DNA of 64,000 bases, taken from positions 5,280,001 to 5,344,000 of the forward strand of contig OZ220744.1 in NCBI GenBank assembly GCA_965116925.1, read 5' to 3'. The notes under the pieces were generated by a model. The model was not told the DNA's origin, ran no database searches, and saw nothing but the letters and a program-made list of their open reading frames with translations. Shown here piece by piece: positions 40,134 to 42,180 of this stretch (positions are counted from its first letter, which is position 1; the number at the start of each line of letters is the position of its first letter). This DNA comes from Candidatus Poribacteria bacterium (lineage in GTDB: Bacteria; Poribacteria; WGA-4E; PCPOR2b). The translations under genes were made by a program, and so were the position numbers.

Positions 40134-40433
40134 TTATACATTATCATGAAATAACGAAAATGTGGTTGGTTCGACGGAGGACACCGGCGTCTCAAAATCA
40201 GGGAACAGCCAGAGTTGATTCGTCTCATCTGCCTCTGAGGTATCCTTAACAGCTAGTTCGTCAGGTGGAATCGTTGAATTGCCCCAGAAATCCATCTGCT
40301 CCACCGTTTCCACGTTCTGATTTGATGCAATACGGGCGTAGATCCGGGCGCGTTGCTCAGAGGAGATCGCTTGCGAGGCGAAGACTTCGCGCATCAATTG
40401 TATGAGTGTGTCGGTAAACAAATCTGTTTGCAT
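40134..40433 (-). CDS. 99-aa acidic protein with repeated beta-clamp-binding-type motifs
   Basis: ATG overlaps the stop codon of the dnaN-like gene (TAATG); QTDLF (aa 2-6), QMDFW (46-50), QLWLF (73-77), FSLF (92-95). Confidence 0.72.
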   Translation of the reverse strand: MQTDLFTDTLIQLMREVFASQAISSEQRARIYARIASNQNVETVEQMDFWGNSTIPPDELAVKDTSEADETNQLWLFPDFETPVSSVEPTTFSLFHDNV

Positions 40434-41566
40434 TATTTCAAAGGCATTACAAGATAACGAAGGTTTTGCGCCAATTGAAGGTATATCGGCGGAGAATTTT
40501 CTGCGTCTGGGTGCAGCCAAAGTGTAACATCATTTGCATCAGTATGCAGGAGTGGCTCTTTAAAAAACCAACTATCAACTGCTATCACTATCTCTGATCC
40601 CGCATACTGAATTGGCACACAGGCTTCCGATTTTCCCAAGTGAGTATTGTTTGCAACAGTCAACTGTCCATCGCTAAAATGAAACTCGGTACGACGGTGG
40701 GGATTATCCTCTACATGAATGATTCCGAGTGCCCAGAGCAACCTTTCGCGGTTCACTTTGACTTCCAAGCGGGTAGGCGCCTTTTCAGTCCTTTCAATAA
40801 TTGACAGATAATTTGGGTAATTTGCTTGCGACGGCCAGAGACATCTTAACACAACACCTTCAACCTCAAAACTCACGGCATTTTCAGTGAAATGTAGTCG
40901 GCAGACCTCTGGTTCTAAGGATTCTATAAGGTCTATCATCTTTACGCACGCTTTATAAGCCATTGCTCGTCTGGGGACTGGTGCTTCTGTGTTTGCTAAC
41001 GCACGCGCGGAGGACAACGTCAACACCGCCATCCGTTTGCCATCGGTGGTCACGATTCGGTCCTCGCCATCATGTCTATGAAAAAGTACTCCCCACATGC
41101 TAGCGCGTCGTTCCGCCCCTTCCGCGTCTGATGGTTTTTCTGATGCGAACAAAACAGTATCCAGTGCCCTCCCGAACTGCGACGCTGGAATTTCATACCC
41201 GTGTACATCGGTTAATTCTTTAAGTGCCGGATCCTGCCATTTTTCTGCGTATGTATACACGACGTGTTGGTGCTGCTCGCCTTCAATGTCCAGACACCCA
41301 TGCCTTTCGTGATGACTGAACAACAACGTCTCACTAGTCGTATATTCACAGATGCGCGGCAGGGCATCTGCGGAAATGGTTGCCGTACCGGAGATTTCAA
41401 CTTCGGCTGGAATCGTGGCGTCAATACAGAAGTTCCCATCGTCAGTATAGCATCGAAACTGTAATTGCGTCGCTTGCGCTGTTATTGACAAGTGCGCTTT
41501 CGGTTCATCAAGTTTCAAAAGTGCTAAGGCACGTTTCAACGTAGCAACCTCACAGGTGAATTTCAT
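40433..41566 (-). CDS. dnaN: divergent DNA polymerase III beta subunit (sliding clamp) paralog
   Basis: 377 aa; MKFTC start, TTDGKRMA (cf. ATDGHRLA), YPNYLSII (cf. FPDYRRV), C-terminal YLVMPLK (cf. YVVMPMR); GGGAGG RBS; no dnaA/recF/gyrB neighbours. Confidence 0.85.
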   Translation of the reverse strand: MKFTCEVATLKRALALLKLDEPKAHLSITAQATQLQFRCYTDDGNFCIDATIPAEVEISGTATISADALPRICEYTTSETLLFSHHERHGCLDIEGEQHQHVVYTYAEKWQDPALKELTDVHGYEIPASQFGRALDTVLFASEKPSDAEGAERRASMWGVLFHRHDGEDRIVTTDGKRMAVLTLSSARALANTEAPVPRRAMAYKACVKMIDLIESLEPEVCRLHFTENAVSFEVEGVVLRCLWPSQANYPNYLSIIERTEKAPTRLEVKVNRERLLWALGIIHVEDNPHRRTEFHFSDGQLTVANNTHLGKSEACVPIQYAGSEIVIAVDSWFFKEPLLHTDANDVTLWLHPDAENSPPIYLQLAQNLRYLVMPLK

Positions 41567-41622
41567 CGGTTCCTCCCTTTTCCCCAGCGGTGCCCTATTG
41601 GGCATATTTTTCCAGTTCAAAT

Positions 41623-42180
41623 TTAAAGTAGATCCTTGAGCGATGTGTTCCGTTGTTTTAATAACCGTAACACTTCATCGCGCAAGGCTTTTCGCGCACG
41701 TTGCCGAAGAGATTTCACAGCGATCTCGCTCCGTTGGACAATTTCTGCAATTTCTCGATTCGGTGTATCTTCCAATTCACCTAACACCAGCACAGTCCGG
41801 TCAATTGGACGCAATTGAAGTAGTGCCGCTTGCAAAAATTCTGCGCTTTCGGAGCGGATTAATTGCTCGAGTGGAGCTTCTGTCGAAGCCACCGGGCTAG
41901 TAAACGCCTCGGTCATCTCAGCCACAACCGTTACCTCCAATGAAGTTACCCAGTGTCGCTGACGCTGGCGCATCAGGTCAATACATCCATTATATGCGAT
42001 GCGAAAAAGCCACGCCCGGACAGATGCAGGATCGAGCAACTCAGACCAACCTTGGTACGCTCGCAGAAAGGTTTCGGCGGTCATATCCTCGGCATCTGTT
42101 GGATTTCCCAGTAACCGCAGAATAAACCGATAAATAGCGTCAACATGTAATTCATACGCTTCGGTGAATGATGCCTCCAC
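41623..42180 (-). CDS. ECF-family RNA polymerase sigma-70 factor
   Basis: Region 2 DAEDMTAETFLRAY and RAWLFRIAYN; region 4 REIAEIVQRSEIAVKSLRQRARKAL; GTG start. Confidence 0.9.
   Translation of the reverse strand: MEASFTEAYELHVDAIYRFILRLLGNPTDAEDMTAETFLRAYQGWSELLDPASVRAWLFRIAYNGCIDLMRQRQRHWVTSLEVTVVAEMTEAFTSPVASTEAPLEQLIRSESAEFLQAALLQLRPIDRTVLVLGELEDTPNREIAEIVQRSEIAVKSLRQRARKALRDEVLRLLKQRNTSLKDLL

Follow-up and report, generated by a model that had tools for sequence, protein, structure and literature searches.

In the class II anti-sigma systems CnrH-CnrY and EcfG/RpoE-NepR-PhyR, two helices of the anti-sigma factor wrap regions 2 and 4 of the sigma factor (PMC4598750). Here we describe a locus of Candidatus Poribacteria, located in a stretch of 64,000 nucleotides (assembly GCA_965116925.1, contig OZ220744.1, positions 5,280,001 to 5,344,000; hereafter the window), in which three co-oriented genes, all on the minus strand, encode an extracytoplasmic function (ECF) sigma factor, a divergent paralog of the sliding clamp DnaN, and a 99-aa protein whose two N-terminal helices are predicted to embrace the sigma factor in the class II manner. 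The unit shares with the NepR system a soluble (here predicted) anti-sigma factor and a set of three linked genes. Unlike the class II systems, it has a sliding clamp and not a sigma mimic as its third partner, it lacks a membrane helix and a periplasmic sensor, and its small protein bears clamp-motif-like peptides and matches no solved anti-sigma factor in sequence. The three genes are real, are under purifying selection and are inherited as one unit in Poribacteria, and they apparently form an undescribed, conserved ECF circuit in which the predicted anti-sigma factor carries clamp-like motifs and the operon supplies a spare clamp. A literature search, covering mainly titles and the beginnings of abstracts and leaving subscription papers mostly outside, returned no ECF sigma factor with a clamp paralog and no clamp-controlled ECF sigma factor.

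Several described systems involve an extra clamp or a clamp-binding peptide. Additional dnaN copies can confer self-resistance to antibiotics that bind the clamp pocket, and GriR and MypR, found in the producers of griselimycin and mycoplanecin, are second dnaN genes besides the housekeeping copy (PMC10817943), as is the clamp gene described here. As a further likeness we list that a distant member of the family, in genome G155, is near-canonical and has an altered pocket. The differences are that the open reading frames (ORFs) flanking the unit in the window and in 22 relatives include, as read, no nonribosomal peptide synthetase genes, that the clamp is coupled to a sigma factor and a predicted anti-sigma factor, and that the window copy, which keeps the pocket, shares only about 24-27% identity with the clamp of the host. 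SocB, of the SocAB system of Caulobacter, is a clamp-binding toxin, and the small protein resembles it in that it may dock on a clamp pocket; the unit differs from SocAB in lacking a SocA-like adaptor, and the conserved part of its small protein is the predicted sigma-binding domain. Finally, in T4 (gp45/gp33/gp55) and Mu (MuC/Mor) a clamp is tied to transcription via clamp-binding motifs, QHDLF in the case of MuC (PMC12867686), but the present unit has a cellular ECF sigma factor, a motif protein predicted to be inhibitory and no clamp loader.

The small protein and its predicted partners

The small protein gave no match in Pfam, NCBIfam, PDB sequences or the Atlas; a profile search of PDB sequences returned a single, unrelated match (E 0.7), and no sequence relationship to CnrY or NepR was found. 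Across its homologues a conserved pair of N-terminal helices leads into an acidic tail that varies apart from a few short motifs, and the dN/dS of the small gene (0.14-0.59, pairwise to 20 relatives) is lowest at residues 1-37 and 72-80. In the helical part hhalign detected a weak relationship to distant small proteins (P0208, E 0.00016, probability 51%; P0308, E 0.0025, probability 12%). In one homologue search 5 of the 17 matches were set aside, since they were long proteins sharing short acidic or repeat stretches only (two of them were read).

When the sigma factor was co-folded with residues 1-40 of the small protein, a score of 0.79 was obtained in three runs, and the best of three controls scored 0.00; the mark applied is one that 116 of 157 solved complexes reach, as against 2 of 215 mismatched pairs. 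The runs agreed in at least 85% of the contacts, with a predicted local distance difference test (pLDDT) value of at least 81 for the partner. In the predicted pose helix 1 contacts residues 112-116, 135-136 and 163-170 of the sigma factor (region 4 and the last helix) and helix 2 contacts residues 9-42 (region 2), i.e., two helices embrace sigma2 and sigma4, and the sigma model itself matched the RpoE-NepR and CnrH-CnrY entries. The surface that the pose hides, sigma regions 2.1-2.2, is the one that binds RNA polymerase (PMC7406223), and the pose is therefore predicted to be inhibitory. The co-fold supports sigma binding and does not show it. The first-pass annotation had seen no recognisable membrane anti-sigma gene at this locus, to which it has to be added that the small ORF itself is an anti-sigma candidate, and the co-fold with the sigma factor that it had suggested as a check came out in the direction of binding. 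We therefore take the 99-aa protein to be, most likely, a soluble anti-sigma factor built on two helices, which the model places in a CnrY/NepR-like pose.

Clamp-binding peptides follow the consensus QL[S/D]LF (PMC9690074, PMC8341153), and the host proteins recognised as DnaE and MutS carry QMGLF and QLALF. By sequence, the tail of the small protein holds two putative motifs of this type, QLWLF and QMDFW; QLMLPGF and QMELPF are present in G155. In 120 close homologues the QLWLF columns were occupied by Q in 116, L in 110, W in 117, L in 118 and F in 119 sequences, and the pattern QL.L[FW] was present in 106 of the 120, as against 0.0017 per 99 aa in host ORFs. The QMDFW/GMELW site is less uniform, with W in 120/120 and Q in only 71/120. 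Clamp-like motifs after helix 2 were found in all eight diverse small proteins examined. In distant members the place of QMDFW behind this helix is taken by QLxLW (four deeper members), QLLLHL (G070) or QLMLPGF (G155). Two further candidates fared less well, so that the 'multi-clamp-motif' protein of the first-pass annotation keeps about two conserved motifs and not four: at the C-terminus FSLF is weak, L94 alone being kept (117/120), and the N-terminal QxDLF/FF occurs in 74 of the 120. The latter, QTDLF in the window, overlaps the predicted sigma contact, and it resembles the tested QHDLF motif of MuC (PMC12867686).

The clamp paralogs and the distant G155 member

The AlphaFold model of the 377-aa product (pLDDT 83.5) matched solved beta clamps at TMq 0.73-0.81 among the matches listed, and it has the three-domain protomer and the conserved peptide pocket of the DnaN fold. 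The family scores were low: 83.8 bits against TIGR00663 (cut-off 137.65), 20.8 and 14.9 against Pfam beta_2 and beta_3 (cut-off 27), and no match to beta_1. The proposed identity of this ORF as DnaN therefore stands by its fold and fails by the family cut-offs, and it is not the housekeeping DnaN because it falls below the TIGR00663 cut-off and the true dnaN lies elsewhere. That separate housekeeping gene, which the first-pass annotation had anticipated, is present 340 kb away (G000 4977181-4978284), flanked by ORFs whose N-termini read as those of dnaA and recF, with gyrB nearby. The gap between dnaA and dnaN (G000 4978280-4978617) contains a series of GTGGATAA-like repeats, such as the DnaA boxes of oriC would form.

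Columns were compared between 55 paralogs and 51 canonical clamps, filtered by length and including the DnaN proteins of Escherichia coli and of the host; the canonical set was taken from loci L045-L101 (ordinary dnaN genes or loci without the sigma gene), which were put to that use only. The pocket is kept in the paralogs, with R152 in 54, T172 in 52, G174 in 55, R176 in 55, P242 in 52, M362 in 54 and P363 in 54 of the 55. Other columns are changed. Position 73 is basic in 48/51 canonical clamps and D or E in 53/55 paralogs, E301 is present in 51/51 against 0/55, and E304, present in 48/51 canonical clamps, is A in 49/55 paralogs, so that basic residues at 73, 74, 80 and 205 and acidic ones at 301 and 304 are replaced. 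From their roles in E. coli we take these to be ring-lining and dimer residues; in 13 housekeeping clamps of Poribacteria they are retained, apart from single exceptions. Net charge had also been considered as a sign of lost DNA binding (-14 versus -5 against mostly Omnitrophota and Planctomycetota clamps) and was dropped, since it failed against host clamps.

The paralog is under selection (dN/dS 0.18-0.37, pairwise to the same 20 relatives) and evolves much faster than the host DnaN, with long branches. In a careful tree without G155 the divergent paralogs formed one side of a branch with support 100/99, and their branching departs in part from that of the host clamps, so that transfer may have taken place.

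At the G155 locus (L203) the clamp is near-canonical (L203:787-1881) and stands with a sigma factor from the same group and with a small gene that carries motifs; this genome also has its own housekeeping dnaN. The module clamp is 49% identical to that DnaN, lies above the TIGR00663 cut-off and keeps R73, K74, R80, E301 and E304; in its pocket TDGRR is replaced by TDIYR, and the M364 column is occupied by A. It is a candidate inhibitor-insensitive clamp. The small ORF is 113 aa long (the automated reading had taken a 41-aa ORF instead). In a quick tree the module clamp grouped with Poribacteria DnaN, with 98 in the SH-like approximate likelihood ratio test, and the long-branch paralogs lay outside, a position that carries a long-branch warning. 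A pocket-only decoy and a pocket-altered replacement would both be expected outputs against a pocket-binding inhibitor.

Inheritance, promoter and layout of the unit

The first-pass annotation had read three co-oriented genes with a 56-bp gap and a TAATG overlap, and had proposed that this order be looked for in related genomes; the coordinates and ORFs agree with that reading, and the order of sigma, clamp and small ORF is kept in relatives. With the clamp as the query, a full-length paralog was found in 13 of 41 related genomes, its own included (41-100% identity), and the small gene was intact in the same 13. With the sigma factor as the query, intact members of the group were found in 24 of 176 genomes of the phylum, at 25 loci, every one of which directly precedes a clamp gene. 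Gene-by-gene reading of 29 loci placed the clamp next to the sigma gene in 28, the remaining one being a contig end; the clamp was complete in 25 of the 29, and a small ORF followed in 25/25, one of them cut by a contig end. These counts are to be read with the reservation that many of the 29 loci were found via the clamp query and that kin are not independent. Translational coupling of clamp and small gene was seen in most loci. The unit is patchy, with 7 of 19 genomes of the same genus and 0 of 100 in family f2, and in three decayed copies internal deletions have fused what is left of the sigma gene to pieces of the clamp or small gene (L044:431-1279, L134:2780-3550 and L135:1983-2400). The named relatives are Candidatus Poribacteria, and pattern-based scans of genomes, metagenomes and viral sequences found no relatives outside Poribacteria-like sequences; one 77% identical contig of 1.9 kb labelled Gammaproteobacteria (L029) is probably mis-binned. 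One genome (G126) holds two intact copies, on C1 and C3 (L103, L110).

The sigma factor scored above the Pfam cut-offs for Sigma70_r2 (59 bits) and r4_2 (46 bits) and reached 81.7 bits against TIGR02937 (cut-off 42.9). It has the sigma2 and sigma4 domains only, joined by a short linker, as in ECF (group 4) factors, and a C-terminal extension with helices 152-176 and 181-184 in the predicted fold. The group is sharply separated, since its intact members score 222 bits or more, the background does not exceed 134 and one half gene stands at 163; the dN/dS of the sigma gene is 0.09-0.23 against the 20 relatives. A 'DLF' at the sigma C-terminus was considered as a possible clamp motif, but the tail folds as a short helix and varies to DFL, DLL or EEF. 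In the main text and part of one supplement of the ECF classification of Casas-Pastor 2021 (PMC7826278) the words 'clamp' and 'Poribacteria' are absent.

Upstream of the sigma gene the pattern CGAT[GC]C-N16-CGTC[AT]T was found in 26 of the 28 module loci tested, with the variant CGATAC in L203, and in its own genome the operon promoter is the sole intergenic match. Because autoregulation is usual among ECF factors, this promoter would be read by the unit's own sigma factor, and if so, the output of the circuit would be the clamp copy and the small protein. A looser pattern gave 6 matches in the own genome, within the 4-12 obtained for seven control spacers, and the second-best match (28.8 bits, spacer 15), antisense inside an ORF read as htpG, was rejected; all others scored at most 18.5 bits, against a training minimum of 26.6. 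Among 41 genomes there were 27 exact matches; 12 of those outside the module were examined and 11 looked incidental. The twelfth lies in G021, where the promoter and leader of the unit stand with no genes behind them (L158:1490-1560), as a deletion might leave them. The G021 genome, which shows 15% contamination, carries an intact unit as well.

Between the sigma and clamp genes (41567-41622) the window is 29 bases shorter than most relatives, where an inverted repeat sits. A consensus RNA structure of the intergenic region came out weak (-1.43 kcal/mol), and the 29 bases are absent from the window copy. The terminator described upstream of the unit exists as a hairpin, at which transcription of the upstream gene probably ends, but terminator-like sites number two against 2.3 expected by chance, and this one is seen in the closest relatives only. 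RNA data (four runs of one study) say little on expression, since both the unit and its flanks are covered by short contigs of low depth. The coordinates of the features are collected in Table 1.

Table 1. Features of the sigma-clamp-small protein unit, in window positions
Feature	Position	Strand	Description and basis
ECF sigma factor gene	41623..42180	-	GTG start, 185 aa; Pfam and NCBIfam matches
Divergent sliding-clamp (DnaN) paralog gene	40433..41566	-	377 aa; fold match and column comparisons
Small-protein gene, predicted soluble anti-sigma factor with clamp-motif-like tail	40134..40433	-	99 aa; co-fold with sigma factor; ATG overlaps clamp stop codon
Predicted two-helix anti-sigma domain, residues 6-39 of small protein	40317..40418	-	Co-fold interface, conserved columns
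First tail motif QMDFW, residues 46-50, clamp-motif-like	40284..40298	-	Sequence likeness
Second tail motif QLWLF, residues 73-77, clamp-motif-like	40203..40217	-	Column conservation
Predicted ECF-type promoter CGATGC-N16-CGTCAT	42219..42246	-	Conserved upstream site
Terminator-like hairpin 5' of the unit	42267..42298	-	14-pair stem with T tail

The neighbours that are co-oriented with the unit (window 32828-46551; DUF4037 genes, a methyltransferase, an ABC permease and others) recur in permuted order in close relatives (L022-L028), and the three-gene unit travels among them as a single block. No attC-like repeat family was found in window 20000-64000. Further along, at 49721-51879, lies a tandem pair of paralogous genes (346 and 357 aa), which begin with an HGT motif and share 74-80% DNA identity in parts.

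A proposed circuit and its rivals

We propose that the unit is a self-contained, self-amplifying ECF circuit that would watch the peptide pocket of the sliding clamp. On the sequence evidence a single promoter would drive the sigma factor, the spare clamp and the small protein. Very probably, as the co-fold predicts, the two N-terminal helices would wrap the sigma factor and keep it off RNA polymerase, and it is likely, from the tail motifs, that the flexible tail would dock in clamp pockets, whether those of the spare clamp, of the housekeeping one or of both. Docking would then keep the anti-sigma factor active, e.g., by shielding the tail from proteolysis, a step that we hold to be evenly balanced. 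Once the pocket is filled by a griselimycin-like antibiotic, by a phage or toxin peptide or by an excess of clamp clients, the anti-sigma factor would be displaced and lost, and the freed sigma factor would fire its own promoter so that more spare clamp is made, which would serve as a pocket decoy (in most lineages, the window included) or as an altered-pocket replacement (in G155). New pockets and new anti-sigma factor would switch the circuit off again. To this reading, in which docking keeps the anti-sigma factor active and a pocket competitor frees the sigma factor, we assign a probability of about 0.5. Of the options raised in the first-pass annotation it is a sigma/anti-sigma switch tied to clamp occupancy that is supported.

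Several observations weigh against it. Solved complexes similar to the predicted one exist, so that the passing co-fold score may reflect likeness to them. The third residue of QLWLF is non-consensus; moreover, the motif pattern was widened after the sequences had been seen, and in shuffles of seven small proteins the widened pattern was matched in 0.8-6% of the trials. All three clamp domains are kept in the paralog, with domain I under selection, which does not suit a dead ring. The overall charge of the paralogs (-7 to -22) is not separable from that of host DnaN proteins (-17 to -31), and by our count the helix charge sum of the window paralog equals that of the host clamp. A charge swap in which a private homodimer is preserved could account for the changes at 73 and 298/301. 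A regulon with a looser motif may have escaped the promoter search, and the ORFs flanking the unit include no producer gene cluster.

The same anatomy, an anti-sigma domain plus clamp motifs, would also suit a circuit of the opposite polarity, a replication sensor in which clamp binding, e.g., to DNA-loaded housekeeping clamps at stalled forks, removes the anti-sigma factor or marks it for degradation, comparable to PhyR acting on NepR, and in which the spare clamp is a partner switch or a buffer. The pocket of the host clamp is intact, and partner switching is a known route of release (PMC4598750). This polarity appears rather unlikely: the promoter stands on no repair or replication gene of the own genome, and there is therefore no obvious replication-stress output; if pockets were activating, more pockets would mean positive feedback; and the unit is patchy within the genus. 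A dedicated transcription or repair clamp, i.e., a charge-swapped ring loaded on DNA, with the small protein as a co-activator bridging the clamp and the sigma factor or RNA polymerase, is improbable as well. Clamp-stimulated transcription exists, with the N-terminal QHDLF of MuC being like QTDLF (PMC12867686), the three domains are kept, the G155 clamp retains its ring and dimer residues, and many members have a DLF-like sigma end. That end, however, is a variable helix, the predicted pose covers the RNA-polymerase-binding surface of the sigma factor (regions 2.1-2.2; PMC7406223), most paralogs have lost the ring-lining basic residues, and the promoter has a -35 element of its own. An alternative working clamp, another of the options raised earlier, is a poor fit for the window paralog, whose ring and dimer residues are changed, and a better one for the distant member in G155.

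Overproduced clamp-motif proteins can kill, as MuC does (PMC12867686), and it could be argued that the small protein poisons the housekeeping clamp and that the paralog neutralizes it, as an addiction or abortive defence system in which sigma binding is secondary. Most loci show translational coupling, and wherever the clamp is broken or absent among the three decayed loci, so is the small gene; the sigma gene is broken in all three as well, however, and the decayed loci therefore do not discriminate. The best-conserved part of the small protein is the predicted sigma-binding domain, no relative was found in two viral-contig scans, and the toxin-plus-decoy option of the first-pass annotation is left without positive evidence; we regard it as quite improbable. 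Fast divergence and long branches would be in keeping with a private regulator, in which the clamp fold binds only its own anti-sigma factor or the sigma tail and senses a signal other than replication, but the tail motifs are near the general consensus and the G155 clamp is 49% identical to the housekeeping DnaN, two facts that point to contact with the clamp system of the host; this is the least probable of the explanations considered, and a very improbable one.

The reading in which a pocket competitor frees the sigma factor would, we suggest tentatively, be a new signalling design, in which the occupancy of the clamp pocket is read by an anti-sigma factor and answered by the production of a decoy or an altered clamp. 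If this is true, it would provide non-producers with an inducible, target-sensing protection against clamp-pocket antibiotics or phage and toxin peptides. If the model holds, the 2-kb single-promoter unit would be a ready-made reporter in the search for DnaN-targeting compounds, there would be a direct link in the cell between the docking hub of the replisome and transcription, and natural inhibitors of the clamp pocket would be common enough in the habitats of these bacteria to select a dedicated sensor.

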